Below are positions 1 through 64,000 of a DNA stretch of 64,000 nucleotides, in pieces. Made by a program: the position numbers and the translations under genes. Numbering within the stretch: the first letter of the stretch is position 1; every line of letters begins with the position of its first letter. The DNA is from Candidatus Omnitrophota bacterium (GTDB lineage Bacteria > Omnitrophota > Gorgyraeia > Zapsychrales > Zapsychraceae), in assembly GCA_018062515.1 (NCBI GenBank), contig JAGOSC010000001.1, positions 40,765 to 104,764 on the forward strand. The letters run 5' to 3'. The notes under the pieces are model-generated. The model was not told where the DNA came from. It worked only from the letters and a program-made list of their open reading frames with translations, and did no database searches.

Positions 1-1176
1 ATAATCAAAATAATTAATCATTTCTTCAATTCTCACCGCGTCGATGGGAGGAAGCTGGCCCTGGTCGACAAATCGTCGAATATTACTGTACGACGCTGTA
101 TCCACATCGACGGAGAATGTTGACAATGGCGCATTAACCGCTGAATAAAACGAATTTTCAAAAATTGAATCATACTCCTCACTATTAGACTGTGGTTGAG
201 GATACGGATAGATGCGTTCGGCTGGATCAGGATAAATGATCCGATCTTTATAATCATCTTCGCGATAAGCCGGCATTCTATTATTTTCCGTGGAATTTAT
301 TTCATTGGATTCAAAATATCTTCTTTGGGCTTCGAGAATTGTTTCATCACTCGCCGGTGGAACAGCGGCGGGATGACGAGCGTACGTCGCACTTCCCTTT
401 GTTTTTTGAGCAACCTGCTCCATCCGTAAACCACCCAAAGCGGCCCCCCGTGGTAAATCATCCTGAGGTACACCTTCCTTCTTTGATTGTATTGGCGCAA
501 AAGTATCCATATTAGCGGAATCCGACCGGGCATATTCCGAAGATTGATATCCGTCCGCACCTTGTCTGTATCGAGCATCTTTAGAGGAGGCTATTTTTTC
601 GCCTGCTCCGAATGATTCTATCGCCGATCCTGATTCTGATTCCGATGGTTTCAAATAACTTGTCGTCAGATAATATGGCTCATATTGGGGCTCAGCTGTA
701 TCTGCTTTTCGCTCTGCACTGGTTACAGTCGGAACCGAAGCTGATACAGTCCGTTTCACTATTGAAGTGTCAACTACGGAAAACTGATCTCCAATATCAT
801 CCGAAGCGGATTTCAAACGTTGCTGAATATTTTTCTTTCCATAAGTCTGGAAATAAATCGTCCCGATAATTAAACATATAGCTATGGTTACAAAGGCGCC
901 GCCTCCGAACGAAAATATTGATTTTCGATTCATATTTTTCTCCCGGAGCTTATCATCAAGAAGTGTCTTCTGAATTTTATTCGCCATATCAGCGGATACA
1001 TCTTCATCTGACCAGTCTTTTAAAGCCGTCGATAACCGATTCAATTCTTTATAATAATCCTGCCATTCTTTTGAATTAATGATCAGGTCTTCGACCTCTT
1101 TTTTTTCTTCTTCAGTGACGAAACCGTCTATATAGGCTGAGATAAGCTCTTTAATTTTTTCATTATTGTTAATCAT
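1..1176 (-). CDS. Anti-sigma factor, 5'-complete and 3'-truncated by the window edge. N-terminal anti-sigma domain, one TM helix, C-terminal vWA-N (YfbK-like) region.
   Basis: ATG at 1176 overlaps the sigma gene stop by 8 bp. I translated the minus frame manually and found it open to position 1: [26 protein letters not shown]... [20 protein letters not shown] ... [38 protein letters not shown] (matches the vWA N-terminal motif). Absent from the ORF track because no stop lies inside the window. Confidence 0.6.
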
Positions 1177-1783
1177 GGTAACCCTCCTGAATATAGGAAG
1201 ATAATTCAACCCGCAATTTTTCACGGGCGCGAAAGATCAGTATTTTGACATTATTCAATGAACAGTTAAGGATTTTGGCGATTTCATCGTAGGAAAATTG
1301 GTGATACTCCCTTAATACAATCGCTTCACGCTGTTGATAATCCAGTCGGCTGATGGCCTTTTGAACAAATACAGCCCGCTCTTTTTTCTCTAAATTTTGA
1401 GATGATATATCCGTTTCATCCGGAACATCCCATTGAGTCGATTGGTCTTTATTTGTAAACGTCATGGAAAATATTTTTTTCGTTTTTCTGATTTTATCGA
1501 TACAGCGATTTCGCGCGATGGTAAACAACCAGGTGGAAAATTTTGCGTTAGGCTGTTGCTTATAAGGACTGCTCAGAAGAGCGACAAATACGTCATGAAC
1601 AACATCCTCAGCATCGGCTCGATTGCCCAAAATTCGGACGCAAAAATTTAAAATACGGTTCTTATATCGATGAAATATCATCGAAATCGCCTCACGATTT
1701 CCAGACTGGTAATCCAGCATGATCTCTTCGTCTGTCTTTTCCATATTGATTAAATGTTCAATGCCTTCAGTTTCATGGAGCAA
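1169..1783 (-). CDS. ECF-family RNA polymerase sigma-70 factor.
   Basis: 204 aa with region 2 ([29 protein letters not shown]) and region 4 ([34 protein letters not shown]) signatures. Overlaps the downstream anti-sigma gene. Confidence 0.85.
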
Positions 1784-1953: not shown

Positions 1954-2370
1954 TTACCGGAATTTATCGTATTTTAATCCGATGTGATGTAAGAACGGCT
2001 TAAATCGTCCCATGTCAGCTTCAAAGCCGCTAAATTCACAACCGCAGCGGTAACAATTGATTACGTACGGAACCTTCTTAAAAAGCAGCCAGTCTACAAG
2101 TGCAAAAAATGGCAGGCTAAGGCCATATGTCCACGGGACGGCAACTATGCCGCACAGCATAATTAGGCAGCCAGCCATTTGATTAAAATTTTTGGAAAGA
2201 TAAAACTGACGGCAGGGACACATGGGGCAGCGGTCAAAAAAATCCGCCTGATTCTGAACTTCTCCCCATTTTGTGTTACATCCGGGGCAGAAAAATTCTT
2301 TTTGATCCAGCCATTCGATTTGACCATACTTTTGACAAGCTGGACAATGACGGCTGATGACTTTTTTCAC
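1954..2370 (-). CDS. Cys-rich zinc-ribbon membrane protein, function unknown.
   Basis: 138 aa; CxxC pairs (CPACQ..CPGCN; CPMCPC; CYRCGC) flank two hydrophobic helices. Its start overlaps the upstream membrane-protein gene by 4 bp. Confidence 0.5.
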   Translation of the reverse strand: MKKVISRHCPACQKYGQIEWLDQKEFFCPGCNTKWGEVQNQADFFDRCPMCPCRQFYLSKNFNQMAGCLIMLCGIVAVPWTYGLSLPFFALVDWLLFKKVPYVINCYRCGCEFSGFEADMGRFKPFLHHIGLKYDKFR

Positions 2371-3140
2371 AAGCTTATTCCAAATTTTATAAAATAATAT
2401 TTATAAGCAACATCACCTAAAAGGACTCCGCATAAAATAACATAAAGAATTCCCGTCGCAGCCTGCGTGTTCTTCAATTTAATAATTTCATGGACCATGA
2501 ATAAAGCAAACAATGGAAAAATAGTACCAAAAAAAACAGGTATGATGAGCAATATCCCTTCGATCGATTTTATAAAGTCAAAGATTGTAACGGTGTCGCC
2601 CAGGTAAACAACTTGTTGAGTAAAAATATAATAAAGATCCCATACGAATCGCATGACAATTAAAACCCAAAAAACCACCGTAGCATTACGGAGATGTTTT
2701 AAAGGAAGCCCGTGAACATTAAGATACCAATGTCCTAAATTCATCGCGAATAAAGATGAAGAAAAAATTAATCCGCCTAAAATACTGATTAAAAAAGTAC
2801 TCGAACTATGTCCTGTTAAAACCAATTGAACACACCACGTTATATATAATCCCAACACCGCTAAAAAAGTAACGGCGGCGAGACCGACTGTTTCTTTTTT
2901 CCAATAAAATGCCGTGATACCTAAAGCTGCAATCATCCAGAAAATGGAAATCACATTTATCATCGGTGAAATCTGCATACGGATCACAAAAAATAAAGTA
3001 ATCACGCCAATGATCGTCGACAAACCGATATGAAAACGATGAAAATTATTTTTTAGAGGATCTTTAAAACAGATCCAAAAACTAAGCGGATAAGTGAAGG
3101 AAAATAACAGGCTGGTTAATAATGTGATGGAAAATATCAT
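2367..3140 (-). CDS. Polytopic integral membrane protein (7-8 TM), function unknown.
   Basis: 257 aa, very hydrophobic; translationally coupled (ATGA overlap) to the zinc-ribbon gene; immediately downstream of the octaheme cytochrome gene. Confidence 0.5.
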   Translation of the reverse strand: MIFSITLLTSLLFSFTYPLSFWICFKDPLKNNFHRFHIGLSTIIGVITLFFVIRMQISPMINVISIFWMIAALGITAFYWKKETVGLAAVTFLAVLGLYITWCVQLVLTGHSSSTFLISILGGLIFSSSLFAMNLGHWYLNVHGLPLKHLRNATVVFWVLIVMRFVWDLYYIFTQQVVYLGDTVTIFDFIKSIEGILLIIPVFFGTIFPLFALFMVHEIIKLKNTQAATGILYVILCGVLLGDVAYKYYFIKFGISL

Positions 3141-3185: not shown

Positions 3186-6125
3186 TTAATTGCTGGTCGG
3201 TGTTGAGACAGGCGCAGGGTGTTCCGCAGGCGCATCGGATAAATGCATGAGAAAATTGCGTAATACCCGAATCTGTTCATTTTCATCACCATTGAGGACG
3301 TCAGGCGGTCCTGACTCGTTGAAATTACTAGGATCAAAAAATGTAGGCATTTTTGTCCCGGGTACAAGAGCTGGAGGGTTTTTAATCCATTCAATCATCC
3401 ATTCCGGCTGCAAACGTGTTTTTGCCAAAGCTAAATCAGGCGCCCATGAATCCTGCGAGCCCGTCGGGAGTTTATTTCCGACAACGTGACATTTGGTACA
3501 ATCCAAATATTCAGCAGAAAATAATTTCTCAGCAGCAGCATACTCTTCCGGTGAAATACTTGTATCAGAATCAAGTTTAAACGCGAATTGATCTCCGTCG
3601 ATGGTTTGAAAGTATTTAACCAAAGTATTTAAATGAGCCGTATTGAAATTAAACGTCGGCATCTTTACTCTTAGCCAAGGCCTAATATTTTCCTTTGGCT
3701 CATGCAAAAACTTAAATAACCATTCGGGATTTAACTTTTTACCCGTGCCCAATAAATTCGGCGGACTGAAACTGTCCCGTTCTTTAATCGCTTCGTTTTC
3801 TGTTTTTCCTTCATATTCTTTAAGCCATGTTTCCACCGTCGCTGCAATCGTCCCGCCACTGTTATCAATAACGTGACAACCCATACAATTAAATTGCGCG
3901 ATTAATTCCTGTCCTTGTTCTTTAAGCAACATTTCCGGCGTTCGCGGAACTTTCTTTAGGACAACCATATCATCATTAACGAAACCTAACAAAGCCGTAA
4001 CAATCGCTTCAACTTCATCATCCTTAAAATGGAAATTAGGCATGACCAATTTTTCATCCGGGGCTTTAATTTTCCCTTTATCAAAAACGCGCGGATCTTT
4101 TAATTTATGTGTATACCAAGATTCTTTGCTGTGGTCGATATGAAGGAAACCAAAATCAAATTTATGAATCGATTTACTTGATTCTTCCGTTAATTCAACA
4201 CCGATCGGTTTATAATTTTCAAATCCTTTAATAGTGTGACAACTATAGCAGCCATATTGACCGATTAATTTCTCGCCGGAAAACTGTAATTTTTCTTCCA
4301 GTTTCATGCTGATCAATTTTTTATTGGCGCCTTGATCGGTTTCGGCGCGTTTTAAAAATCCAAGGACAATGTCATTAAGTACATGTTCATCGACGGCGGG
4401 TATGGCCTTAGCTTCAAACTTAGCATTCTTTCCTTGAATAAGATATTGGGTGATATCCGACGCTTCCTGATCTGTTAAACGGAAGTCAGGCATCTTTGTT
4501 TCCGGATGATAACGATTCGGATCCTTGAGCCAATCATAAAGCCACTCGGGAGATGTTTTCGAGCCCAAACCGATTAAATTCGGACCATATCGACGTCGGA
4601 CTGAATCAATATTAGCTTTATCTTCTGTCGGTTCAGGTTGAACATTATGACAAGCAAAACAACCAACCGACTTAACTAACTTTTCACCATTTTTAGCATC
4701 GCCATTAACTGGTATTTTTTTCAGAGCAAATTCGGTGCTGTTTCCAAATAAATAAGACACAATCGCATGGATTTCCTGTTCAGAGCGTTTCTTCGACGCC
4801 GGATCACTATTATTTGACTGATTAAAGTATGCGGGCATCATCGTATTGTGACGGAAAGAATGCGGATCATTAATCCAGCGATAGGCCCATTCTTTAGAAA
4901 ACTTATTGTGCAATTTAGTTAAATCAGGCCCAGGTTTTTTCCAATCAGAATAACGTTCAATGTCATGACAAGCAAAACAACCGGCCTTTTCGATTAAATT
5001 TAATCCAAGACTGAGTTTTTCAGCACCTTTAATAGGGAATTCACCGCTGTGACATTTAAAACAGCCCGCTTGAACAAACGGCAAAGGCAGCATGGGATCT
5101 TCCCATAACTCCATTTGATGATATTTGTATTTATGCGTCCACTCATCCTTTTGTTGAGCTGAAGATGGCACGTGAACAGCACCATTAAAACTCGTTCCCC
5201 GCGCCCGGCCGCCATGACAGGTTGTACAACCAAATTCTTCTATAGGATGCTTCGAATCTTTCCCGACGTAAAGTTCAAGATTAGGGTGTGTTCGAAATGG
5301 CTGAATCTCATTTTTATAATCTGGATTGGTAATACCTAAGTGGCATGTCACACAACGCTCCACCTTGGGGATACCCATAAAATTGACATTGTCTTTTAAA
5401 TCCCGCAAAACAATTTGTTCAATTTTATTATTTGGATTGGCTAAATCAATGATAGGTAAATCGCGTACCCCATTGGCAATTTGATTCGCAAAACTCATTT
5501 GGGCGGGATCAATTTTAGCGAGCTTTCTTTCTAATAATTCTTTCTTTCCGGCTATTTTATTTTTTTGACGCTCAATTTGCTTAAGCTGCTCGCCGCATTG
5601 CGCTAATATATCTGTTTTTCCTTTAAGTTGAGTGGTAACGTTTTGAACTTTGAGATTCAGGCCGGTAACCATCTTATCCAATACTTGATAATTATTTTTA
5701 TATTTGCTGGTTTGATGTTCATGATTTGCTTCTGCATGTTCAAATTTGTATTTGGCCGCGTCTAACTCGGCTTTTTTAAATTTATAGGTCTGTTCTACAA
5801 GGGTTAACTGGGCTTGAAGATTTTGAATCTCAGAGTTAATGGTTGTTTGCGTGGTGCAGGTTTTGGTATAATCTTGTTTACTTTTCTCAAAATCCTCGAC
5901 GATCTTTTTGTATTCTTCTTGACTATTTAAATTTATTTCCTCTTTATCGAGCTTTATACGGGCCTTTTCGACTTCCATCTCTCTAAACTGAATCTGATAC
6001 TTTTTCCATTCACGGTCATAATCTCTCAAAAACATGATTGTGATGGTGCCCAATAAAACCATGCTAGCTAGGGCAAATAGTACGTTCAGCTTTTCTGTAT
6101 TATAATGACGTTCGTCTTTTCCCAC
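3186..6125 (-). CDS. Membrane-anchored octaheme c-type cytochrome: a 4-heme module fused to four class-I monoheme domains.
   Basis: 979 aa. N-terminal TM (LNVLFALASMVLLGTITIMF) then about 200 aa coiled coil. Eight CxxCH motifs: CVTCH, CTTCH, CFKCH, CFACH, CFACH, CYSCH, CMGCH, CTKCH. The last four each have a downstream Met ligand motif (KMPDF, VMPNF, KMPTFNF, KMPTFF). Confidence 0.85.
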   Translation of the reverse strand: MGKDERHYNTEKLNVLFALASMVLLGTITIMFLRDYDREWKKYQIQFREMEVEKARIKLDKEEINLNSQEEYKKIVEDFEKSKQDYTKTCTTQTTINSEIQNLQAQLTLVEQTYKFKKAELDAAKYKFEHAEANHEHQTSKYKNNYQVLDKMVTGLNLKVQNVTTQLKGKTDILAQCGEQLKQIERQKNKIAGKKELLERKLAKIDPAQMSFANQIANGVRDLPIIDLANPNNKIEQIVLRDLKDNVNFMGIPKVERCVTCHLGITNPDYKNEIQPFRTHPNLELYVGKDSKHPIEEFGCTTCHGGRARGTSFNGAVHVPSSAQQKDEWTHKYKYHQMELWEDPMLPLPFVQAGCFKCHSGEFPIKGAEKLSLGLNLIEKAGCFACHDIERYSDWKKPGPDLTKLHNKFSKEWAYRWINDPHSFRHNTMMPAYFNQSNNSDPASKKRSEQEIHAIVSYLFGNSTEFALKKIPVNGDAKNGEKLVKSVGCFACHNVQPEPTEDKANIDSVRRRYGPNLIGLGSKTSPEWLYDWLKDPNRYHPETKMPDFRLTDQEASDITQYLIQGKNAKFEAKAIPAVDEHVLNDIVLGFLKRAETDQGANKKLISMKLEEKLQFSGEKLIGQYGCYSCHTIKGFENYKPIGVELTEESSKSIHKFDFGFLHIDHSKESWYTHKLKDPRVFDKGKIKAPDEKLVMPNFHFKDDEVEAIVTALLGFVNDDMVVLKKVPRTPEMLLKEQGQELIAQFNCMGCHVIDNSGGTIAATVETWLKEYEGKTENEAIKERDSFSPPNLLGTGKKLNPEWLFKFLHEPKENIRPWLRVKMPTFNFNTAHLNTLVKYFQTIDGDQFAFKLDSDTSISPEEYAAAEKLFSAEYLDCTKCHVVGNKLPTGSQDSWAPDLALAKTRLQPEWMIEWIKNPPALVPGTKMPTFFDPSNFNESGPPDVLNGDENEQIRVLRNFLMHLSDAPAEHPAPVSTPTSN

Positions 6126-6142
6126 TTGAACCCTTAAGTAAA

Positions 6143-7261
6143 TTAAATATTAAAGAAAAATTCCGGAATGGCGATAATGTACTTCACGTTAAACGCCCAG
6201 CGCAAAAGCATTTTAATCGGTAAGCTAGCTGTCAATAACAGGAGAACAACAAACACGCTGTATCGCAATGGTCCCAAATTTTTATATACATTTTTTAATA
6301 ATGTTTTTGATAAAAGCCACGGCATACCCGCGAGGTAAATAAATAGGACGATAAAACCTCCAACCTCTCTTAAAAGGATATTTGTCGGCAACTCTCTCTT
6401 CATCCATATCATATAAATATATTCAGAAAGATTTATGTTCGTCAACGCTTCTAACTTATGCAAATCCCAGTATTCAAAAGGCCCGAAGAAATTCCAGTTT
6501 GGTCCACGCAAAAATGTTCCGACGGTGATTAAGAACATCCATAATACCAACCATAAGAACATAAAAATCGATATAGCCATGCGCCGTTCTTGAAATGTGT
6601 AATAACCGCAGCCCTTTTTATTATTATCAATATAAGGTATCGACATTAAACCAAACATAATAATCGACGGAAACACGACACCGGCTAACCATGGATCAAA
6701 ATAAACAAGCATTTCCTGAAGCCCAAGAAAATACCATGGGGCTTTGGAAGGATTAGGTGAAACCGCCGGGTTAGCGGCTTCTTCAATGGGTGCTTGCAGC
6801 GACATCGCCCATACAAGGAGTAACGCAGAACACAATATTATACAAATAAATTCAATGTAAACCAGATCCGGCCAAACGAGAATTTTTTCCTTAGCGTCTT
6901 CTGCTTCATTTGGTCTTTGTCCGGCGGCAATACGGGCATCATTGTCATAACCTTGTTTCATGGATAACCACAAGAAAAAAACAATCAGAAACAAAAGCCC
7001 GACGATCGGCACATTATCGGGTTTCGTTACAATTTTTCGAAAATTAGGATCCGTTATCCCAAAACAAAAAAATGCAAAAAGTGTGGATAATAGAGCAACA
7101 CCCCCTGCATTCGTCCAAAGTTTATAGATACGTAGGCGCTGATTAATTTTTAAAAAGAAATCATTGATGGGAAAAATAAGCAGGTAAATTCCGACGAGAA
7201 CTGGAAAAAGAATCCGCGGATTTGTTACGTGATTAATAAATTCTTTGATTGAGTCGATCAT
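6143..7261 (-). CDS. Cytochrome b C-terminal half (subunit IV-like) of a split bc/b6f-type complex, with extra N-terminal helices.
   Basis: 372 aa; carries the PEWY-equivalent motif KAPWYFLGLQEM; polytopic; directly follows the b6-type cytochrome b gene. Confidence 0.7.
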   Translation of the reverse strand: MIDSIKEFINHVTNPRILFPVLVGIYLLIFPINDFFLKINQRLRIYKLWTNAGGVALLSTLFAFFCFGITDPNFRKIVTKPDNVPIVGLLFLIVFFLWLSMKQGYDNDARIAAGQRPNEAEDAKEKILVWPDLVYIEFICIILCSALLLVWAMSLQAPIEEAANPAVSPNPSKAPWYFLGLQEMLVYFDPWLAGVVFPSIIMFGLMSIPYIDNNKKGCGYYTFQERRMAISIFMFLWLVLWMFLITVGTFLRGPNWNFFGPFEYWDLHKLEALTNINLSEYIYMIWMKRELPTNILLREVGGFIVLFIYLAGMPWLLSKTLLKNVYKNLGPLRYSVFVVLLLLTASLPIKMLLRWAFNVKYIIAIPEFFFNI

Positions 7262-7299
7262 AAGTTTATTACTTTATTTTTTTACGAAATATTTTCCGA

Positions 7300-8094
7300 T
7301 TAGACTGGCCCGGAAATTCCGCCGTCTTTTCTTACGCGCCAGAAATGGATAATCATAAAAATCATAACAACGAATGGCAATCCTATACAGTGAAGAACAT
7401 AGAACCGCAACAAAGCCGCCTCACCGACGAAACGGCCGCCTAACATCGCAAACTTCGCATCGCTGCTCGACGTGACAAAATTAACATCACCGATCGCTAA
7501 AAGGCCTGAACCGGGTCCCGACGTCCCGACAAACGGTGTCGCCCCAGCCATGTTTGATCCGACGGTGATAGCCCAAATTGCTAATTGATCCCATGGTAAT
7601 AAATATCCGGTAAAGCTTAAAAGCATTGTTAAAACTAATAAGACAACACCAATTGACCAATTAAATTCACGAGGAGGTTTATAAGAACCTGTCATGAAAA
7701 CTCGGAACATATGCAGCCAAACCGTAATAACCATCAAGTGAGCACCCCAACGATGAATTTCTCGCATGATACCTAAAGGAACTTGTTCGCGTAAATCAAT
7801 AATATCGCCGTACGCATATTCGACCGTCGGACGATAATAAAACATAAGAAGAATTCCGGTCACTGTCATGACGAGAAAAATAAAAAATGATAATCCGCCC
7901 ATACACCATGTATATTTGACTTTTACGGCATGCTTAGGTAAACGCACCGGATGAAGATGAAGAAAAACGCCATTTAACATGACCATCATCCGTTGTCGGC
8001 GAGTTTTCGGAACACCCGTACGGAAAACAGCTTTCCAAACTTGGGTTCCGACTATGTATTTCTGAAATTCTTTCCACTTACTATTTTCCGACAT
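7300..8094 (-). CDS. Cytochrome b, N-terminal b6-type subunit (PetB/QcrB-like).
   Basis: 264 aa; His ligands in helices B and D ([24 protein letters not shown]...[20 protein letters not shown]). Confidence 0.8.
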
Positions 8095-11360: not shown

Positions 11361-11365
11361 TTAAC

Positions 11366-54756: not shown

Positions 54757-57700
54757 TTATCTTACGCTGCTCAACATCTCTTCTTCGTTCACTGTCGCAC
54801 CCAAAAGAAGCGGTAAATTGGTGATTGGCGTTATGTTAATGATAATGGGCGATAAACCTTCGCCGATGTGGATATTTTGTAGATTTTGATTAACATTCGG
54901 CGCGTTAAAACTTTGACCTTTTCCTTGAATTTCGAGATCTAGTAAGCCGGGATTAAAATCAATACCACCGACTTCTTTTCCCAATATGCTTTTATCGGAA
55001 TTTTGCATCTCGCTCGCGCCACTCACGTATTTACCAAAAGGAACCTTCGCTTGGTCTGACGGATCTTTGGTCGGGTCTTGGCCAGGTATCGCGTTTGTTT
55101 TCATCTCTTTTCCAATCTTTGCAATTAAATCTTTGGCCTTGTCTTGTAGTCCATCCGCTTCAAAACGATTAAGCACATTTTTTAAAACAGCGTCAGGTTG
55201 AACGAGGGATTCTAACATTGATTTAAGCAAAGTCTCTTCGGATGATAATGTTTGTTCTTCAGCTGTCTGTTTAGATCTTTCTTCTTCAACTAACTTTTTA
55301 TATTGATCTGGCAAGTTACTCATCGTTACTTTTTGATTGACATCGTGACCATATTTGATCGTCAGATTATCCCGATTTTTGTGACGGACCAGAGAACGGT
55401 AAACTCTCTCCATATTATTTTTGATAGTGGCTTCGTCTCTGTAGTTAGGAGCAAAATCATATGAATGAATCTCAATCTTTTTTAAACTTGATACTGTTTC
55501 CAATTGTTCTAAATATGATAAAGAAGGTATGTTTATCTCCTCTAAATTTTCAGGAAAATCTATATTTTCCATATTTAAATTGCGATTATCCGCATCGCGC
55601 AATACTAATTCTTTTAAAAACTTAAAATTTTTCAAATAACTTAAAATCCTTTCTCGAGCGGCATCGTCCATCTTCTCAACAGATAATTTAATATTACTTA
55701 TATTCTCTAAATGACTAGGCCAGGAAAGTATTTTAATTATTGCCTCTGGTTCCAAACCAAAAATACTTAATCCGCTAATTTCTCCTTTTCTATTAAATCT
55801 TAATGTTTCTTTAAGCATCTCCCTCTCAATAGACAGATCTTTGACGGCCGCATCCAATGTCTTTTCACTGTTTAAGGTCATCATATGCCCTTGCGACGTA
55901 AGGATAGCCAAATTATCCCGATTCTTATGATGATTTAAGAAATCTATCAAAAGATCATCCTTAAAACCTGTGGCATACACACTTAAATATTCCAAGTTTT
56001 CCAGGTATTGTAGATTCTTTAATCCGGCTATAGTTATATTTTCTTTGTAAAGGATTAACTCTTTCAGGCTCTTTATTTTTGTTAAATATTTGAAATCGAC
56101 ATCATTATTTTCGTTTGTGGAATATTGTAATTTTTTCAAATTCTTCAGTTTTGGTAAATGCTTAGCTCTATTTTTCATTTCAACATTGTAAAGATATAAT
56201 TCTTCCAAATCATCGCTTAATTGTTCCAACCCAACAAATATTTTATCCATAATTTTTTCGTCGAGAGAACTGTTATCTAAATCTAAAACGAATTTTCCGT
56301 CACTGTTGAGTGTCAATCGTTCTTTACCTAAATTCTTATTAAGACCAAGATTTTCTAAATATTTACGGGCTATGGCCAAACGTTTATCCAAAGCAGCGGA
56401 TGTTTCTTTCGGGTCAGCGATTTTATATTCCGAAGGTACGTCGTCAAGAAATAAAGTTTTACCCGAAGAAGACACAACAGAGAAAATTTTTGGTTCTGGA
56501 GAATTATATTGCATAATAAGTTTAAAAATAGCGTCATCGCTCACCGCAGTATCTTTAAAATTTAAACTTTGTAATATAGGCAGCCCTAATAAATGTTTTT
56601 CTAATCCCACATCAGTCACTTTTGTTCCTTCAAGATCAAGGCTTGACAATCCTAACCCTTTTAAATGCACTAAGCCGTTATCGCTTATATTCGTTCCGTC
56701 TAGGATTAAAATTATTAAATTGGGTAACTCTCTAATCTGGACTAATCCCGCATCGGTCACCTTCGTTTGTCTAAGATTTAATATGCCTAACTTATGCAAA
56801 CTCTTTATATGTGCTAATCCATCATTGGTGACGTTCGTTCCCTTTAAATCCAAACGTACCAAATTGGGCAAATCTTTAATGTACCCTAATCCTGAGTCGC
56901 TCACCATTGTATCGTTAAGCATTAATTCTTTTAAATTCGACATCCCTTTTAAATTCATTAACCCGCTATTGGTCACAGCCATTCCACTAAGATTTAACAT
57001 GTTTAGGTTCGTCAAACGGCTGATATCAGAAAGGATATTGTCAATATCAATAATATCGGCATCTATACTTAATCCGCTTAAATCCAACTTCATAAATTTT
57101 TCCTCACCTAATAAATCAACTCGTTCTTTTATTTCGTTAAGTTTGACAACACCCAAATCTCCTAAAATTTTAATGGCCAAATTCACCTGGTCGTCCAGGC
57201 TGAGCCCCTCTTTCTGTTCCGCGATTTTGTGCTCAGGTAGATCCTTAACTGTAAGTTTAGTATTTGAATCGGTAAGAATTTCCAGATTTTTCTGATTAGC
57301 ATGCTGTTCAATAAATTTCAAAAACGCATCCTTAGATATTCCAGCTTCAAGAAACAATAATTTTAGATTTTTTAAACTTAGTAAATTTGATAGTCCAGCC
57401 TCCGTAATTTTTGTTCCATCAAGATAAAGACTTTCTAAATTTAATTTACTCAAACTTGGCAGCCCGGCATCCGTGACTTTAGTGTTTGTAAGATCCAAAT
57501 GTTTTAAAAATGTTAATTCTTTTAAATATTCTAACCCGTCGTCACTTATATTCGTATCTTTAAGTTCCAAATGTATTAATTTTGTCAAACCTTTTACATG
57601 TTGTAACCCCGCATTACTTATACTTGATCCACTGAGATTTAAAAATTTCAAATCCGTTAAACGGCTGATTTCGGAAAGCTTATTGTCCATTTGATCATTT

Positions 57701-60700
57701 TTGAGACCTGACAAATCCAAACTTATCCATTTCTGTTGAGCGTCATTTCGTATATTTATTCGCCCCTTCATTTCTTCGAGATCTTTTACCCCAAAATCAT
57801 TCAATATTTTTTTGGCTATTTCTTCTTGTTCGTCCAGGCTGAGGGTTTCTTTCTGCCCCGCGGTTTTATATTCCTCAGGCACGTCAGTTATTGTGATTGT
57901 TTCAGTCGGGGAATATATGATTCCTAAATTATCCCGATTTGGATGCTGCACAATAAATTCATAAATAGCTTTATCGGTTAACTGTGTATCGTCACCGACA
58001 TTTACATCTTCCTCTAAATGTGTGTCTGTTCGAAAATGAAGATCCAGGGTTTCCAATTTTTTCAGTGAAATCAGGTATTTTAATCCCGAATCTTGAATGC
58101 GATTGTTCGAAAAAGTCAGTTTCTTTAAATTCGTTAGCTGACCAACCCTGAAAAGAATATTGTCTTCTATTTTATGTTTGCTTCTAAGGTCTAACTCCAA
58201 TTCTCCCTGATCATTGACGTGTAATCGATCCATTGAAATATTTAATTCAAGCAATACTTTTCGAGCTTCAATTATCTGCTCATCCAGAGTGAGGGGCTTT
58301 TTCTGCTCAGCGGTTTTATATTCCTCAGGCACGTCATTTATGGTAATAAGCTTCCCAGAACTTGATATAACAGCCAGATTGTCTCCATTTTCATGTTGGC
58401 TGATAAAATTTTTAATGGCATCATCACTTACTTTCGTAGCTACAAATATCGCAGATCCCAAATTCGGCAATTTATTTAAATACGGCAATGCGGCATCAGT
58501 AACGTTCGTATCAGTCAAATTAATAAACTTCAGATTCAGTAAATCTAAATACTTTACCGATGTATCATCCACTTGGGTATAGTCAAGATATAATGCCTCT
58601 AAAGTCGTCAGAAGACGAATATTGAAAAGCCAAGTATTGATATTACTGTTTGTTAAATTTGATAAAATCACTCCAATAACTTCTTCCTTATCATTTTTTA
58701 TGATTCGATCTTTGATAGCGTCATCCGCAACGTCCAATCCTTTTAATAATTGACGGGCCATGTCCTCAACGGTGAGAGGTTTTTCCTGCTCCGCGGTTTT
58801 GTATTCATCCGGCACGTCATCTATGGTCAAATACGGGCCGCCCGCTCCAACCTCCAATTTTTGATTCGGATGTTGTACTATAAATTTATATATTTCTTCA
58901 TTACTTATATCTGATCTAGAAAAATATAAATTCTCTAAATATAGCAGACCGTTAAAATACTTTAACTTCGAGCTGGTTATGGTTACGCCTCCAAGAAATA
59001 GCCATGTGAGGTCTTTATCTTTTAATCCAGCAAGAACTTGGTCAATATTATTATCATTCAAATCATCTATGTGTGCCTTCAATTTTCCGCCTTCAACCAA
59101 TACAATGGGTTCTTTGATTCCTAAATTTCTTAACAATTCTTTGATCTGTGTCACTTGATCCTTCAAACTAGAAGGTTTTTTCTGCTCCTCGGTTTTGTAT
59201 TCATCCGGCACGTCGCTTATTCCAATCGTCTTACCAGAGGCTGAGATGACTTTCAGGTTATTTCGATTCATATGTTGTCCTAAAAATTTTTTAATATCGT
59301 CTTCACTTACATTCGTTCCAGATAAATCTACATAACGCAAATTTGGTAATTCAAGCAAAGGCGTAAGTCCAGAATAACTCACCTTTGTTCCCCTCAAAAA
59401 CATTGTTTCTAAATTTTTATTATTTAAATATGATAATTCTGAATCACCCACATCTGTGTTAGTAATATCCAATCTTGTCAATTTTTTCAATCCGTTAATT
59501 TGCTCTAAGTCATTCCCCTTTAATTTTAATTTAGTCCCTTGTAAAGTTAAATCTTCCAAAGTATCTAGCCGCGCCACGTCATAAAGTATTTTTGAGAAAT
59601 CTTTATTATCAGCAAATAAACTGAGGGACAATCTAAATAATTCACCTTGAGAGTTGACGCCTATGCGCAAATCACGCCGACCTTTTTCTAAAACTCCTAC
59701 ATCCTTTAATATTTTATGGGCCAGATCTATTTTTTCCTCCACGGAAAGTTCTTTTTTCTGTTCTGTGGTTTTGTATTTATCCGGCACGTCTGTTATGCCA
59801 ATGGTATGGTGCCTTCTTATAAACTTTCCTGACTTAACACTTATCTCATGCGCTAACGTAACTCTTATATTATCCCGATTCTTATGCTGCACAATAAATT
59901 TATAAACAGCTTCATTGCTAACTTGTGTCTCATGAAGATTTATCTCTTCCAAGTTTTCTAAATCTTTAAGAAGGAGGAGGTGTTCATCCGTCAAATTTGC
60001 TATCGAATTAAGAAGCAGATATTTTAAATTTGTCAAACGGTTAACGTCCGAAAGCACCTGACTAATATCATTACTCACCAGGTCAGATAAATTAAATCCT
60101 TCCAACTCTCCAGAGTCGTTCTTCAGTATTCGAGCTTCAACTTTCAAAAAACTCGAGCTAAAAGCCATATTTTTTAATAGTTTTGTGACTAAATCAAGCT
60201 GTTCTTCAGAGCTGAGAACTTCCTTCTGTCCCGCGGTTTTATATTTCTCAGGCACGTCACTAATTTTGTAAACAGTTCCGTTGTCATTTTTTCCCCACCC
60301 GTCCCCATAATATAATTTAACGGATAGATTATTCTGATTTTGATGCTGTCCGATAAATCTTTTAATAGCATCTTCGCTTACTACCTTTTTATAAAACGTT
60401 ACTTCTTTCAAATTCGGCAGTGCCAATAAATATGGCAGTTCGGCATCGGTGAATGCCGGTCCATTAAAGGTCAATTTTATCAAATTCGGAAGACGATTGA
60501 AATTCAGAAATATAGACTTGAGACCTTCAATGTCAAAATTTGATAAATTTAACGTGAATCCTACCCGATCGTATCTTTTTGATATTCGTTCCTCAATGCC
60601 AATCGCTGACTCCCCCTGCTTTTTTAAAATTTCCTGAGTCAGTTTCACCTGTTCATCCAAGCTGAGTTCTTCTTTCTGTTCCGCGGCTTTATATTCATCA

Positions 60701-63700
60701 GGCACGTCTTTTATTGTAATTTCTTTTCCGAATGCATGAACTGTTAAATTATCTCTATTTTTATGCTGCCATATAAATTTCTTTATGGCATCCTCAGTTA
60801 CTTTGGTTCCATTAAGATATAAGTTTTTTAAATTTGACATTAAGATTAAATACTCTAACTGTTTATCGGTTGTATCCGTATCATGCATGTCTAATGTTTC
60901 TAATTCAGTTAAATGCTTTATATCGTGAAAAATTGCCTGTTTCGTTGGCTCTAACAATGCTACACTTAATTCAGTTACTCCATAGTCATTAGTATCCATA
61001 AACAGATTACTTTTTGTAATGCCTAGCTTTTTTAATATTTTAATTGCCAAGTCAATTTGTTCTTGCCTGCTGAGTTTTTCATTCTTTTCCGTTGATTCAT
61101 CTCCAACATTTTCCTTTAATATGACTGAACGCATGACGCCATAGGTATAAACCTCTTCCACTTTGCGCTGAATGTCCTGTAAACTTACCAGTTCAAATGT
61201 ATCGCGCTGAAGGCGGCTGGAAACGTCTTTCTTTATCGCTTCATTCTCGACGGAGGTAGACCGTTGTATGGCTTTTTTAAGGTCGGCGAGTGTAGTGATT
61301 TCGTCAACATAACTGACCGCGTCTGTATATACAGTGAATTTAAATCCTTGTGCAAATAAAAATGCCAAAGCCTCGTCGAGAATCGGATTCCATTTGATTT
61401 CGTTCAAGTTCTCACCCGTTAAAATAATTGTCTTTTTAGAAGTTAAAGGAACACCGCTGCTACTCACATGTGCTTCGGAAGGATTTAGAAAATAGGCTTC
61501 TAGGTCAAATACACCATTCATCCCAAAATCATCACCAGGTGTTTTTTTAATTTGAATAAAGGCGTCCAAAGCCTGATTCAGTTCACTCTGGAACGTTTCA
61601 CTGACTTGAGCCATACGTGGTTGTCGAGGAGTATCTTCTGTTGTACTTCGGGTTAATTTGATTTGCTTGACCGATGGTGGTGTTACGGGCTTAGGATCAT
61701 ATTTTGAGGCTCGATGACTATCTGTATGGACACCCGCCCCATGTCGCCGGCCAATCATTCCTCCCATATCTATTCCTTCTCCAAAGCCATCTCCAAATTG
61801 TTGTCCGAACCCATGTCCTTTTACATCATTCCAAAATTTATCCAGCTTATTTAAAAAACTGTTTGATTTTCCTTTCTGATTCAATGATTCATTCGCCGCC
61901 TGCATTCTTTTTTGTGAAACCTTTCTAATATGACTCTTCAGTCGATTAACTTGACCTATAAGCGTTGACTCCAGATTAGATTTTTGAATTTGATGAATGG
62001 CATCAACAATGTTTCCTTGATAAGACGGATTTTCCAATAATGAAAGCATTTCTTCAAGACGTTCATCTAAAAGACGATATTCATACATTAAGTCCTTAGA
62101 AATTTCGTCTAAAATCCGTTTGATTTTTTGTTCAGTAGGTCGTGTGTTCCGTTTAAGACGATCAGCCAAAGCTTGTTTTTTCTTATTCAACTCAGCTTCA
62201 GTTAATGGCTGATTATTTTGAACAACATGGCTTTCTTCCTCTACATTTTCAACCTCACCCAAATTCCGGATAGCCTCAGCACTGTGGGCGCGTTCTTCCT
62301 CTTTCTCTTCTTCAGAAAGAATTTCTTCCGGTTGTTCTTCCACTGGAATAGATAAATAGTCATTTTCCATTGAGGAAAATAAAATATCCCCGCGAAACTG
62401 CTGATACAAACGTTCTTCTTCATCATTTACCCGCGCGTAAGAAAGCCCTAATTCCCGAGCAGCATCCAAATGTTTTAACGCTAAACGGACCGGATTTATA
62501 GCAAAGACATCATCTAATACACCGGCAAATTGTTCCAGACTCTCGCGTCGATTATTTTTTGCGTGTTCTGGGGTCAACAGAGTATTTGCATAAGTCCATA
62601 ACGTATATTGATACATTGTCCGCATAGTTAAAGGATCATTGCCGTCAATCATCCATTCATCAAATGTTTCAATATCCACGTCGGCTGCCATTTGAGCAAA
62701 ACGTTTTAAACCGTCTGACGGTATACCAAGTACGGAATACTCAAACTCATAACGATGCCCGGCCTCATGACGCAAATCTTCCATATCTTGCTGAAAATCA
62801 CTTCTGAGTACTGAGCGCGTCCGACGGGCATGACTGGTTTCATGGAACATGACATTCTCCCAATAACCATTGATAAATCCCCGCGACCGTTGGACAATTG
62901 CTTTTTGATCTTCCTTCCAATAACCACCACCGTCGTTTGCATCGGCACTGTCCTCCCACACATCAACCTCTCCGTAAAGATCTCCGACCAGATACCAAGC
63001 TATTTTTTTCATCATATTAATTTGCTGGATTTTCAAATCCTTGGCATCTTCCTGGTAATTGATTAATTCCTCGCGAGACGGAAGCTTTTGATTTTTCAAG
63101 AATTTTTGTAAATACAGCTGATAAACAAACTCTTCAGCTATTTTTTCAGGAGATTCACTTGGTAAACCCAAGCGCATATGTAACATACGGAGAAACTCCC
63201 GAGGCGTAGGCTGATGTTCTTTATTTTCAATGTGATTCTGCAGCCATAAATGAATATTCACCATGACCTTAATATCTTCCGTTGATACTTCCTTACCAAC
63301 CATATATGAATCAATAAACTGAACCGCAATTTGCGTTAATTCTTTTTGATTATAACTCCTTAAACGTTTATAAATAACCCGGTTCTGCAAGGCGCTGGAA
63401 AGCTTTTCTCGTCCATGAAAATCCACGGAATTAATGGTGGCAAACAGCGCAAAACCCGGAGCGGCGTTACCAGTCAACACATCATTGAGCCGCCCTTCCA
63501 AAAATCCGCTCGGTAAACGGTTCATTTCACTAATAACAACAATTGATCCTTCTCGTTGCGCCTTCTTGATGAGAGCCACCATTGCATCCGTATCAAAAGA
63601 CGCCGTAATGCGGTAAAAAGTTGTTTCAGGATTTGTTGCAGTTTGCTCTACCGATCCTTCTTTAAATCCATTTTCAGTGAGTGTTTTAACAACACTCACG

Positions 63701-64000
63701 TCCTTACCTTGTCCAGATGGGCCCTCAATAATCATCCCGCGTTTGCCTTGTAATGTCTGCGGATTTTTAACCCGCTCTTGACGCATATTTAAAAAATCTT
63801 GAATATCCGCCGTTAATTCCGCTGTAGAGTCGTTGAAAAAGAATTTATCTTTTTTAAAACGTTCGCCAAATTTTTTTTGAATGTCTGCTATCCGTTGTTG
63901 ATCAAGATCGTTCACTAAAACACCATACTTTTCTCGAATCAAATACGTAAATGCTTTTTTCTCCTCTTCAGAAAAATTTCCTTTATAAATAATCCAAGCG
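54757..64000 (-). CDS. Giant-family protein P4 (more than 3080 aa, 5' end beyond the window): degenerate AAA_5 (MoxR/midasin-like) ATPase module, tandem HExxH motifs, nine leucine-rich-repeat cassettes, family C-terminal domain.
   Basis: The frame stays open from 63942 to 64000 (AWIIYKGNFSEEEKKAFTY-L-IREKYG...), so the track's 'M' is a TTG inside the ORF. GPSGQGKD / IVVISEMNRL / FALFATINSVDF..LSSALQNRV follow the AAA_5 motif order. HETSH at 62830-62844 and HEAGH at 62755-62769. LRRs of the LxxLxLxxTxVTDAGL type. C-terminus GGIDFNPGLLDLEIQGKG...PIIINITPITNLPLLLG. Confidence 0.9.
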   Translation of the reverse strand, partial: AWIIYKGNFSEEEKKAFTYLIREKYGVLVNDLDQQRIADIQKKFGERFKKDKFFFNDSTAELTADIQDFLNMRQERVKNPQTLQGKRGMIIEGPSGQGKDVSVVKTLTENGFKEGSVEQTATNPETTFYRITASFDTDAMVALIKKAQREGSIVVISEMNRLPSGFLEGRLNDVLTGNAAPGFALFATINSVDFHGREKLSSALQNRVIYKRLRSYNQKELTQIAVQFIDSYMVGKEVSTEDIKVMVNIHLWLQNHIENKEHQPTPREFLRMLHMRLGLPSESPEKIAEEFVYQLYLQKFLKNQKLPSREELINYQEDAKDLKIQQINMMKKIAWYLVGDLYGEVDVWEDSADANDGGGYWKEDQKAIVQRSRGFINGYWENVMFHETSHARRTRSVLRSDFQQDMEDLRHEAGHRYEFEYSVLGIPSDGLKRFAQMAADVDIETFDEWMIDGNDPLTMRTMYQYTLWTYANTLLTPEHAKNNRRESLEQFAGVLDDVFAINPVRLALKHLDAARELGLSYARVNDEEERLYQQFRGDILFSSMENDYLSIPVEEQPEEILSEEEKEEERAHSAEAIRNLGEVENVEEESHVVQNNQPLTEAELNKKKQALADRLKRNTRPTEQKIKRILDEISKDLMYEYRLLDERLEEMLSLLENPSYQGNIVDAIHQIQKSNLESTLIGQVNRLKSHIRKVSQKRMQAANESLNQKGKSNSFLNKLDKFWNDVKGHGFGQQFGDGFGEGIDMGGMIGRRHGAGVHTDSHRASKYDPKPVTPPSVKQIKLTRSTTEDTPRQPRMAQVSETFQSELNQALDAFIQIKKTPGDDFGMNGVFDLEAYFLNPSEAHVSSSGVPLTSKKTIILTGENLNEIKWNPILDEALAFLFAQGFKFTVYTDAVSYVDEITTLADLKKAIQRSTSVENEAIKKDVSSRLQRDTFELVSLQDIQRKVEEVYTYGVMRSVILKENVGDESTEKNEKLSRQEQIDLAIKILKKLGITKSNLFMDTNDYGVTELSVALLEPTKQAIFHDIKHLTELETLDMHDTDTTDKQLEYLILMSNLKNLYLNGTKVTEDAIKKFIWQHKNRDNLTVHAFGKEITIKDVPDEYKAAEQKEELSLDEQVKLTQEILKKQGESAIGIEERISKRYDRVGFTLNLSNFDIEGLKSIFLNFNRLPNLIKLTFNGPAFTDAELPYLLALPNLKEVTFYKKVVSEDAIKRFIGQHQNQNNLSVKLYYGDGWGKNDNGTVYKISDVPEKYKTAGQKEVLSSEEQLDLVTKLLKNMAFSSSFLKVEARILKNDSGELEGFNLSDLVSNDISQVLSDVNRLTNLKYLLLNSIANLTDEHLLLLKDLENLEEINLHETQVSNEAVYKFIVQHKNRDNIRVTLAHEISVKSGKFIRRHHTIGITDVPDKYKTTEQKKELSVEEKIDLAHKILKDVGVLEKGRRDLRIGVNSQGELFRLSLSLFADNKDFSKILYDVARLDTLEDLTLQGTKLKLKGNDLEQINGLKKLTRLDITNTDVGDSELSYLNNKNLETMFLRGTKVSYSGLTPLLELPNLRYVDLSGTNVSEDDIKKFLGQHMNRNNLKVISASGKTIGISDVPDEYKTEEQKKPSSLKDQVTQIKELLRNLGIKEPIVLVEGGKLKAHIDDLNDNNIDQVLAGLKDKDLTWLFLGGVTITSSKLKYFNGLLYLENLYFSRSDISNEEIYKFIVQHPNQKLEVGAGGPYLTIDDVPDEYKTAEQEKPLTVEDMARQLLKGLDVADDAIKDRIIKNDKEEVIGVILSNLTNSNINTWLFNIRLLTTLEALYLDYTQVDDTSVKYLDLLNLKFINLTDTNVTDAALPYLNKLPNLGSAIFVATKVSDDAIKNFISQHENGDNLAVISSSGKLITINDVPEEYKTAEQKKPLTLDEQIIEARKVLLELNISMDRLHVNDQGELELDLRSKHKIEDNILFRVGQLTNLKKLTFSNNRIQDSGLKYLISLKKLETLDLHFRTDTHLEEDVNVGDDTQLTDKAIYEFIVQHPNRDNLGIIYSPTETITITDVPEEYKTAGQKETLSLDEQEEIAKKILNDFGVKDLEEMKGRINIRNDAQQKWISLDLSGLKNDQMDNKLSEISRLTDLKFLNLSGSSISNAGLQHVKGLTKLIHLELKDTNISDDGLEYLKELTFLKHLDLTNTKVTDAGLPSLSKLNLESLYLDGTKITEAGLSNLLSLKNLKLLFLEAGISKDAFLKFIEQHANQKNLEILTDSNTKLTVKDLPEHKIAEQKEGLSLDDQVNLAIKILGDLGVVKLNEIKERVDLLGEEKFMKLDLSGLSIDADIIDIDNILSDISRLTNLNMLNLSGMAVTNSGLMNLKGMSNLKELMLNDTMVSDSGLGYIKDLPNLVRLDLKGTNVTNDGLAHIKSLHKLGILNLRQTKVTDAGLVQIRELPNLIILILDGTNISDNGLVHLKGLGLSSLDLEGTKVTDVGLEKHLLGLPILQSLNFKDTAVSDDAIFKLIMQYNSPEPKIFSVVSSSGKTLFLDDVPSEYKIADPKETSAALDKRLAIARKYLENLGLNKNLGKERLTLNSDGKFVLDLDNSSLDEKIMDKIFVGLEQLSDDLEELYLYNVEMKNRAKHLPKLKNLKKLQYSTNENNDVDFKYLTKIKSLKELILYKENITIAGLKNLQYLENLEYLSVYATGFKDDLLIDFLNHHKNRDNLAILTSQGHMMTLNSEKTLDAAVKDLSIEREMLKETLRFNRKGEISGLSIFGLEPEAIIKILSWPSHLENISNIKLSVEKMDDAARERILSYLKNFKFLKELVLRDADNRNLNMENIDFPENLEEINIPSLSYLEQLETVSSLKKIEIHSYDFAPNYRDEATIKNNMERVYRSLVRHKNRDNLTIKYGHDVNQKVTMSNLPDQYKKLVEEERSKQTAEEQTLSSEETLLKSMLESLVQPDAVLKNVLNRFEADGLQDKAKDLIAKIGKEMKTNAIPGQDPTKDPSDQAKVPFGKYVSGASEMQNSDKSILGKEVGGIDFNPGLLDLEIQGKGQSFNAPNVNQNLQNIHIGEGLSPIIINITPITNLPLLLGATVNEEEMLSSVR
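56400..60760 (-). repeat. Nine tandem coding cassettes in P4 (each about 130-200 aa): LRR block, FIxQHxNRDNL, then DVPDEYKTAEQK-xLSLDEQ linker. The linkers are near-identical at DNA level.
   Basis: A core of about 33 nt (ctgctccgcggttttgtattcatccggcacgtc and variants) recurs at about 56440, 57225, 57870, 58321, 58790, 59180, 59760, 60225 and 60675, each encoding DVP(D/E)EYKTAEQK on the minus strand. Confidence 0.85.

Follow-up and report, generated by a model that had tools for sequence, protein, structure and literature searches.

Omnitrophota are noted for very long genes and, to our knowledge, a single episymbiont is the only member of the phylum in culture. Here we analyze a 64,000-nt stretch of a Candidatus Omnitrophota genome (contig JAGOSC010000001.1; the whole stretch is called the window below), in which four large genes, termed P1 to P4, lie among genes for haem biosynthesis, cytochrome c maturation (ccs), molybdenum cofactor (Moco) synthesis, a Rieske/cytochrome b complex and the F1Fo ATP synthase. 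A reading made from the sequence alone had described this region as a single-strand block with many short gene overlaps, and had suggested for the large genes either co-regulation and co-evolution with respiration or a tolerated site of insertion.

Counting open reading frames (ORFs) of at least 100 residues that are not nested within another ORF, we found 34 of 34 on the minus strand, as are both ORFs cut by the window edges, namely an anti-sigma-like ORF and P4, the latter running through base 64000 without an in-frame stop. Pfam and NCBIfam searches confirmed the identities and order of essentially all the genes that the sequence-only reading had named, and tRNA and Rfam scans of the window recovered zero RNA genes. 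The overlaps were also recovered, seven of 4 bp and two of 8 bp, and all of them are between housekeeping genes; none involves P1 to P4, which are set off by gaps of 67-211 bp on each side. GC skew, which the earlier reading had proposed to compare along with synteny and codon usage, has a single sign along the entire window, which places the genes on the G-rich, presumably leading, strand. Such single-strandedness is unremarkable for Omnitrophota: at 8 other loci from the phylum about 90% of the called genes are co-oriented with the anchor gene (roughly 114 of 126 by manual count), and the strand count comprises few independent units because the genes come in operons.

Housekeeping backbone and the placement of the large genes

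Examination of related genomes revealed that the order and orientation of the housekeeping genes are kept in the loci here labeled L002, L087 and L088. The first of these is a 1-Mb contig from another Omnitrophota metagenome-assembled genome (MAG), with proteins 56-93% identical to those of the window. It carries the order lipoprotein-ccsB-ccsA-moeA-rhodanese-GDPD (glycerophosphodiester phosphodiesterase)-DAHP (3-deoxy-D-arabino-heptulosonate 7-phosphate) synthase-hemH-hemA-orf123-atpBEFHAGDC-HEAT-Rieske-cytochrome b in the same orientation as the window; here only 115 bp separate GDPD from DAHP synthase, without P1, and the conserved segment upstream of the DAHP synthase gene lies, in the window, downstream of P1. 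L087 (hemE 82% identical) and L088 (hemE 68%) keep hemN-PilZ-hemE-hemY together, followed by an ABC ATPase and a gene of ~530 codons on the opposite strand and then by lipoprotein-ccsB-ccsA-moeA-moaD-rhodanese(-GDPD). The same ABC pair stands upstream of the lipoprotein gene in L002, and there is no trace of it in the window. The order hemN-PilZ-hemE-hemY is also identical in L089 and L090; upstream of hemN there are YHYH and 556-aa genes in L088 and sdhAB in L090, and P4 in neither. No large gene occurs at the junctions covered by L002, L087 and L088, and the haem/ccs/atp loci of the relatives contain no member of the family to which the large proteins belong (see below). In the distant L090 and L091, hemE-hemY is clustered with ccsBA and/or hemA (in L091 also with hemH), again without large genes. 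The named homologues of hemE are from Omnitrophota too.

The sequence-only reading had allowed that the arrangement might be peculiar to one assembly, with the housekeeping genes unlinked in relatives. They are linked in the close relatives, so the backbone is real, and the linkage fades in more distant genomes. The same reading had described the haem pathway as split by the large genes; these do widen the gaps, but in relatives that lack them the haem pathway is already in two groups of genes, with the ccs, Moco and GDPD genes in between. In its ordinary clustering, with translational coupling via 4-/8-bp overlaps, the backbone is like known haem-biosynthesis, cytochrome c maturation and ATP synthase clusters; it differs from them in where the PilZ and HEAT-repeat genes are placed and in losing its linkage in distant genomes. 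The order with PilZ between hemN and hemE and the HEAT gene between atpC and the Rieske gene appears to be peculiar to the present clade of Omnitrophota.

The window, L002 and L087 are mutually about equidistant and L088 is more distant; therefore gain of the large genes in the lineage of the window is the most parsimonious. Taken together, we consider it probable that four large genes of one huge Omnitrophota family were inserted at three inter-unit junctions of a conserved backbone, and that their link to respiration is incidental. The ancestral state would have been an old co-oriented cluster of haem, cytochrome c maturation, Moco, DAHP synthase, F1Fo ATP synthase and Rieske/cytochrome b genes. 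To this the window lineage would have added P4 upstream of hemN; P3 and P2 would have entered between hemY and the lipoprotein-ccsBA unit, displacing the opposite-strand ABC-transporter pair, and P1 between GDPD and DAHP synthase. The basis for this is several genomes for the P3/P2 slot and the P4 junction, and L002 alone for P1. The block would be single-stranded because the ABC pair, its only opposite-strand unit, was lost where P3 and P2 stand. As a separate observation, a transposase of the Y1 (IS200/IS605) type occupies this same slot in L087, between hemY and the ABC pair (4474-5154), and the hemY-lipoprotein junction seems to accept insertions repeatedly.

An ancestral presence of the large genes followed by independent deletion in the relatives would suit both the single comparison genome for P1 and the ease with which large genes might be deleted. 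We regard this history as unlikely since an orthologous opposite-strand ABC pair fills the P3/P2 slot in L002, L087 and the more distant L088, which would demand repeated loss along with repeated gain of the same pair. Moreover, L088 and L090 also lack P4, and the P3 middle (residues 361-2000) had zero homologues in a search that did not return P3 itself, so that the database may lack P3. Still less credible is a chimera, formed in assembly or binning, of large and housekeeping genes. The source is a MAG, contigs in the Logan assemblies break within or near the large genes, and the hemY-P3 and P2-lipoprotein junctions fall outside the set that was independently reproduced. However, two Logan assemblies of run SRR11088468 reproduce the junctions GDPD-P1-DAHP…atp and P4-hemN-PilZ exactly, at 100% identity, in a different assembly; GC skew is continuous over the window, the NCBI contig, on which protein KBD53_00350 is identical to P2, is 111 kb long, and in many further assemblies family members likewise stand amid housekeeping genes.

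The large genes also differ from their neighbors in composition and in their upstream regions. The correlation of relative synonymous codon usage (RSCU) between the large genes and their neighbors is 0.80, whereas random halves of the neighbors correlate at 0.95 (minimum 0.91), and the GC content of third codon positions is 0.343 versus 0.396. A consensus scan placed the best sigma-70-like match of its 20-kb scan region, with 11/12 positions, in the gap upstream of P3, and found weaker promoter-like sites, again consensus matches only, upstream of P1, hemN and DAHP synthase. Each large gene would apparently have brought its own promoter, and hence its insertion between operons would have been tolerated. 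Additionally, P1 and P2 have in common a 21-nt element, TATATGTTAnnCTTGnGCnTA, ~30-50 nt before their start codons (28295-28315 and 38386-38406, minus strand), which may be a shared promoter or leader. It is absent from the rest of the window (0.04 occurrences expected), although this count is partly circular as the pattern was derived from the two sites, and among the fetched loci it occurs only in a Logan contig (L001) of the same genome. A k-mer search found no upstream motif common to family genes across several genomes.

In the explanation by a functional super-operon, expression and evolution of the large proteins would be tied to respiration, for instance because the respiratory chain needs them as machinery of the surface or of quinone metabolism, and this would account for their interleaving on one strand. 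It draws on the single strand, the short gaps and the lack of convincing terminators after the large genes, as well as on two regions of P1 resembling ABC1/UbiB kinases and M48 (HtpX-like) peptidases, families associated with the synthesis of quinones and with quality control of membrane proteins. UbiB itself acts in quinone biosynthesis. A search of P1 with the UbiB model TIGR01982 gave 101.9 bits, for a partial region only, against a cut-off of 487.55, and P1 was not accepted as a UbiB. Against the super-operon stand the backbone kept without large genes in three relatives, the unrelated neighbors of family members elsewhere, the distinct codon usage, the absence of recognizable domains from the P3 and P2 middles and the UbiB score far under the family cut-off. 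We accordingly hold it to be quite improbable, though somewhat less so than the chimera. Since members elsewhere lie amid unrelated genes and none are found in the haem/ccs/atp loci of the relatives, there is no specific tie to respiration, and the link to it at this locus would be incidental. Thus, of the two explanations first offered for the large genes, the tolerated insertion site is supported by a backbone conserved without them, and co-regulation with respiration is unlikely in view of these relatives, the separate gaps and candidate promoters, the codon usage and the unrelated contexts. The large genes are best read as lineage-specific insertions rather than co-evolved parts of a respiratory super-operon, and the gene arrangement itself is real but ordinary, a set of insertions into a conserved cluster.

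Several points weigh against the insertion of the large genes as we describe it. The polarity of P1 depends on the one genome, L002; DAHP synthase as query in a JGI scan gave 80 loci of 63-70% identity, among which the 36 examined, all longer than 9 kb, lacked the neighborhood, and the scan told nothing on this polarity. Neither scars of insertion nor flanking repeats nor genes for recombinases came to light: around P1 there are only short repeats such as chance predicts, and Pfam detected no integrase or transposase gene in the window. The total of promoter matches is not clearly above that of shuffled sequence, the difference in codon usage could stem from expression level rather than origin, and the ABC1/UbiB-like domain in P1 could point to a respiratory connection, though its score lies far below the cut-off.

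A bookend family across Omnitrophota

Comparison of the large proteins with each other revealed a relationship that was absent from the sequence-only reading. P1, P2 and P3 have ~350 N-terminal residues in common, with 51-56% identity; the N-terminus of P4 lies beyond the window. The middles of the large proteins are unrelated. The common N-terminal region starts with a Sec-type signal, consisting of basic residues, a hydrophobic stretch and then a site of the …AQS type, and continues into a domain of ~330 residues (N-domain) marked by WVNLSPYE…, RQ…W.K and YFSGG. All four proteins further end in a common motif of ~60 residues, GGIDFNP…PVIINVTPITNLPLLLG, whose consensus is GGID(F/L)NP…G..PVIIN(V/I)TP(I/V)TN.P.LLG and which falls within ~100 residues of the terminus (C-motif). 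Hydropathy profiles show no membrane-type segment beyond the signal peptide and the C-motif, and no internal hydrophobic helices. Strikingly few cysteines are present: just 2 in 10,986 residues of P1-P4, at positions 16 and 18 and both within signal peptides, leaving 0 in the mature parts against ~132 expected from the 1.2% cysteine of the neighbors. We therefore call these proteins the bookend family, which as judged from its sequences is defined by a predicted signal peptide with N-domain, a variable middle, the C-motif and near-total exclusion of cysteine.

The conserved ends gave no match to Pfam, NCBIfam or PADLOC models, and searches of PDB sequences with P1, P3, P4 and an N-domain profile returned only LRR (leucine-rich repeat) or ABC1 fragments and low-complexity matches; for the N-domain, the PDB holds no relative in structure. 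The middles of P2 and P3 have no recognizable domain in Pfam or NCBIfam (for P3 also in PDB sequence and homologue searches), and the P1 middle found nothing in a JGI metagenome scan. Structure prediction yielded a mixed alpha/beta model for the N-domain (mean predicted local distance difference test, pLDDT, 75). The C-motif modeled alone with AlphaFold2 (AF2), as a 95-residue fragment, showed no secondary structure (pLDDT 62; predicted template modeling score 0.19), and the prediction gives it no independent fold.

The N-domain of P2 matched at least 4281 proteins and, among the matches listed, every one with a named source comes from Omnitrophota or an unclassified vent MAG. Identities of P1-P3 to thousands of other proteins are 55-74%. 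An exhaustive search recovered 8043 representatives, clustered at 50% identity, with E<=1e-3, and 6152 with E<=1e-30; the N-domain is always at residues ~5-370, in proteins of 420-4969 residues. A hidden Markov model of the C-motif matched 156 of 192 N-domain proteins at a median of 8 residues from the C-terminus, and most of those without a match look 3'-truncated; both ends therefore travel together. The N-domains of P1-P3 are 62-75% identical to members from other metagenomes versus 54-57% among themselves, and are old paralogues rather than local duplicates.

Across the 192 members the mature parts contain 0.05% cysteine, and 128 have none. The cysteines that are retained form CxxxCxxC (radical-SAM) or CxxC motifs, for example in P0031 (581-588) and P0265 (482-489), so it seems that non-essential cysteines were purged and catalytic ones kept. 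This pattern suggests that the cargo enzymes may be active and that there is strong selection on how the proteins travel. Pfam families detected in the middles include methyltransferase, HATPase, phosphoglucomutase, ROK, glucose-6-phosphate (G6P) isomerase, phosphoglycerate kinase (PGK), hexokinase and UDP-glucose pyrophosphorylase, and further members contain radical SAM, HEAT, DnaJ and LysM domains.

The genomic contexts of members elsewhere are varied. In L082 the member has a BaxI-like gene on one side and TPR genes on the other, follows rpsO-pnp-ftsK-rodZ-miaB-pgsA and shares one strand with all of them, and in L084 it is amid two-component genes. Those of L092 (1743-6572 and 8460 onward) and L093 (1-9598 and 10001-15388), coordinates that comprise bookend members and super-giant loci, adjoin genes for proteins of 44,763 and 38,825 residues and genes for the E, F and pseudopilin components of a type II secretion system (T2SS), and the family may be functionally tied to known giant-gene/secretion loci. 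The readable parts of these super-giants contain no N-domain or C-motif. Two IMG/VR contigs classed as viral, L175 and L176, also carry a member (N-domain 47% identity). In L176 the 5 kb upstream of it encodes radical SAM/SPASM and Lcl_C-domain proteins and no viral hallmark, and these contigs could reflect misclassification or a mobile context. In our searches of the literature on Omnitrophota giant proteins and of full texts, of limited coverage, neither the conserved ends nor the exclusion of cysteine turned up, and the family is apparently undescribed.

Other features of the window

The coordinates of the genes and features are collected in Table 1. The small PilZ-domain gene between hemN and hemE occurs in four genomes (the window; L087, 1581-1943; L088, 9590-9943; L090, 9554-9880). 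Because it is present in relatives without large genes, it belongs with the haem cluster rather than with the large genes; its product would be a c-di-GMP-binding protein encoded within a haem operon. The HEAT-repeat protein is 74% identical to its counterpart at the same position in L002 (19034-19945), and it may be an accessory of the Rieske/cytochrome b complex. The octahaem cytochrome c of this complex has an N-terminal membrane helix, then ~200 residues that are weakly SMC-like (coiled-coil), and then the haem sites, giving it an unusually long stalk for a bc-complex cytochrome. Beyond it, the 138-aa protein (1954-2370), encoded between the membrane protein orf257 and the sigma-factor gene, has a single hydrophobic helix and 12 cysteines that are paired in the CxxC manner; neither it nor the adjoining 257-aa protein has a Pfam or NCBIfam match. 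The 199-aa ORF listed as rhodanese (29051-29650) is over-extended at its 5' end and overlaps moaD in another frame; its true start is probably near 29530, with a signal peptide of its own.

The hemH product is 80% identical to that of L002, and the next closest GTDB species, at 57-64%, are Cytophagales and other Bacteroidota. The ferrochelatase of the Omnitrophota locus L091 is only 30% identical to it. The predominance of Bacteroidota among its relatives together with this low identity suggests that hemH may have been gained by transfer between phyla. Its GTDB relatives other than L002 have no neighborhood in common with the window.

Table 1. Genes and sequence features of the window, in order of position (indented in sense: parts follow the unit to which they belong)
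Feature	Position	Strand	Remarks
Anti-sigma-like ORF	1..1172	-	Open frame throughout; starts beside sigma-factor stop, leaves window at left edge
Sigma factor, extracytoplasmic function (ECF) type	1169..1783	-	Pfam Sigma70_r2 and Sigma70_r4_2
Two genes: 138-aa Cys-rich protein and 257-aa protein (~8-9 hydrophobic segments)	1954..3140	-	Hydropathy, Cys counts
Rieske/cytochrome b complex	3186..8735	-	Pfam
Octahaem cytochrome c, 979 aa	3186-6125	-	Pfam; 8 CxxCH motifs
Cytochrome b, C-terminal part	6143-7261	-	Pfam
Cytochrome b, N-terminal part	7300-8094	-	Pfam; syntenic in L002
Rieske protein	8109-8735	-	Pfam; syntenic in L002
HEAT-repeat protein	8745..9611	-	One N-terminal hydrophobic helix; between atpC and Rieske gene
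F1Fo ATP synthase operon (123-aa membrane ORF, then atpB E F H A G D C)	9640..16314	-	Pfam; colinear with L002, 63-93% identity
hemA	16447-17499	-	Pfam; colinear in L002
hemH	17591-18625	-	Pfam; colinear in L002
DAHP synthase	18806-19846	-	Pfam; colinear in L002
P1-DAHP synthase spacer	19847..20002	-	DAHP upstream segment kept with L002 (alignment); promoter-like site 19945-19917
P1, 2753 aa (putative insertion 3)	20003..28264	-	Absent between GDPD and DAHP in L002
P1 C-motif	20006-20215	-	
P1 ABC1/UbiB-like kinase region	about 21185-22105	-	
P1 M48 peptidase-like region	about 26468-26725	-	Intact HELSH
P1 signal peptide and N-domain	27185-28264	-	
Lipoprotein-ccsB-ccsA-moeA-moaD-rhodanese-GDPD block	28365..34637	-	Pfam; colinear in L002, L087, L088
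GDPD	28365-29054	-	Pfam
Rhodanese	about 29051-29530	-	Pfam
moaD	29529-29771	-	
Lipoprotein	33984-34637	-	First gene of ccsBA block
P2, 1203 aa (putative insertion 2b)	34746..38357	-	
P2 C-motif	34749-34988	-	
P2 signal peptide and N-domain	37278-38357	-	Middle orphan
P3, 3969 aa (putative insertion 2a)	38425..50334	-	
P3 C-motif	38428-38691	-	
P3 signal peptide and N-domain	49255-50334	-	Middle orphan, ~3500 aa
Sigma-70-like match TTGACA-17-TATACT, 11/12	50500..50528	-	In 211-bp gap upstream of P3; consensus match only
hemY	50546-51898	-	Pfam
hemE	51895-52908	-	Pfam
PilZ gene	52949-53311	-	Pfam; start overlaps hemN stop by 4 bp
hemN	53308-54684	-	Pfam
P4, >3080 aa (putative insertion 1)	54757..64000	-	5' end beyond window
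P4 C-motif	54760-54969	-	
P4 LRR region	about 57490-58134	-	
P4 P-loop	near window edge	-	

Possible export of the bookend proteins and comparison with known systems

With respect to function, we see about an even chance that the large proteins are exported through Sec and then handled by a dedicated envelope pathway. They would leave the cytoplasm through Sec, their conserved ends would be recognized by this pathway while the proteins are unfolded, and they would end up displayed on the surface or handed over to a host or prey cell, with the middle serving as freely exchangeable cargo. More tentatively, the bookends might mark the substrates of an undescribed Omnitrophota route by which polypeptides, unfolded and free of cysteine, would leave the cell and perhaps enter those of a host or prey. 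Weighing against such export, both it and the dedicated pathway are inferred from sequence only, the window contains no candidate transporter gene, the N-domain model is of only moderate confidence, and radical-SAM cargo behind a Sec signal is hard to square with a simple periplasmic or extracellular function.

A competing explanation is that the proteins are not exported at all: the N-terminal helix would be a membrane anchor, and the proteins would be cytoplasmic multi-enzyme scaffolds tethered to the inner membrane, as proposed for some Omnitrophota giants. In line with this, the cargo of other members consists of enzymes of kinds usual in the cytoplasm (phosphoglucomutase, G6P isomerase, PGK, hexokinase, ROK kinases, radical SAM, HATPase), the retained CxxxCxxC motifs imply loading of iron-sulfur clusters, which is a cytoplasmic process, and these Pfam families also prevail among the "multi-enzyme" giants (bioRxiv 10.64898/2026.06.07.730766). 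Nevertheless, the basic residues before the hydrophobic stretch and the AQS-type site predict a location outside the cytoplasm for most of the protein, the purge of cysteine would have no reason within it (the cytoplasmic neighbors have 1.2%), and a conserved motif at the extreme C-terminus suggests sorting; we hence judge the scaffold to be rather unlikely. The cytoplasm-type enzymes and the retained iron-sulfur motifs together favor either delivery into another cell or such a membrane-tethered scaffold.

Very long, cysteine-poor proteins that have a conserved secretion domain at the N-terminus typify two-partner secretion (TPS), and C-terminal sorting elements are typical of type IX secretion (by the T9SS). 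The TpsA exoproteins of the former (type Vb, such as FhaB, CdiA and HMW1) have a Sec signal, a conserved N-terminal secretion domain of ~300 residues, a length of 2-5 thousand residues, few cysteines and variable functional regions, and FhaB has a conserved C-terminal prodomain. The bookend proteins are alike in their Sec signal, conserved N-terminal domain, great length and few cysteines, a likeness of analogy and not homology. P1-P4 were rejected as TpsA proteins, as there is no Pfam TPS or haemagglutination-activity match and the N-domain model is mixed alpha/beta and not a beta-helix; no gene for an Omp85/POTRA-type TpsB partner occurs within the window.

T9SS cargo is described in general terms as having an N-terminal Sec signal and a C-terminal sorting element of ~60-90 residues on otherwise unrelated proteins (PMC11285876). 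The combination of a Sec signal with a conserved C-terminal element is thus common to both, but the T9SS C-terminal domain is an Ig-like beta-sandwich whereas the bookend C-motif is predicted to be without a fold, and T9SS cargo has no shared N-domain. The C-motif gave no Pfam or NCBIfam match to Por_Secre_tail/TIGR04183, and the AF2 test of the isolated 95-residue fragment is a weak one. An exosortase/PEP-CTERM signal was likewise rejected: the hydrophobic stretch at the C-terminal end is proline-rich and followed by an acidic tail (…LLGESEEQ…LSxL), where such signals have a transmembrane helix and a basic cluster after their signature motif, and there is no NCBIfam CTERM match. Mycobacterial PE/PPE proteins, Rhs/polymorphic toxins and oomycete CRN effectors similarly combine a conserved module with a diverse, fast-evolving remainder and lineage expansion; they have no sequence relationship to the bookend family, which conserves both ends, varies the middle and excludes cysteine.

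Within the phylum itself, the giants described so far are Archaeovorins and those of Dockerin and multi-enzyme types (bioRxiv 10.1101/2023.11.21.568195; 10.64898/2026.06.07.730766; PMC10066038), and West-Roberts et al. and Nielsen & Lui have reported "giant gene plus secretion system" loci (bioRxiv 10.1101/2023.11.21.568195; 10.64898/2026.06.07.730766). The bookend proteins are like these giants in their phylum, unusually long ORFs, few recognizable domains and overlapping cargo Pfam families. However, Archaeovorin- and Dockerin-type giants exceed 10-20 thousand residues and have many transmembrane helices, whereas P1-P3 have 1203-3969 residues and no internal hydrophobic helices. Such giants also begin with a region that includes a C39 or S8 peptidase, contain repeats of the HEAT or dockerin/TSP3 kind and have a SecA-like C-terminal region, with a locus like that of T2SS/type IV pili upstream and pilZ directly downstream. 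As candidates for this type P1-P4 were rejected, since Pfam gives only M48 and ABC1 in P1, LRR in P4 and nothing in P2 and P3. Pfam likewise detected no secretion or pilus gene in the window, and its PilZ gene follows hemN and is kept in relatives without large genes, unlike the downstream pilZ of the giants.

Against the background of a phylum known for its very long genes, the part of this locus worth following is the large, apparently undescribed family. Its signature, namely signal peptide and N-domain, C-motif and lack of cysteine, would allow a probably exported class to be listed in any Omnitrophota genome, would separate the bookend class from the membrane-embedded super-giants and would help in seeking the machinery that recognizes the conserved ends. 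If the proposed route exists, its cargo would include LRR proteins, kinases and proteases, enzymes of glycolysis and of sugar-nucleotide metabolism, and even domains of the radical-SAM type, and this family of at least 8,000 clusters would be the effector repertoire of the phylum, its genes scattered by insertion between housekeeping operons.

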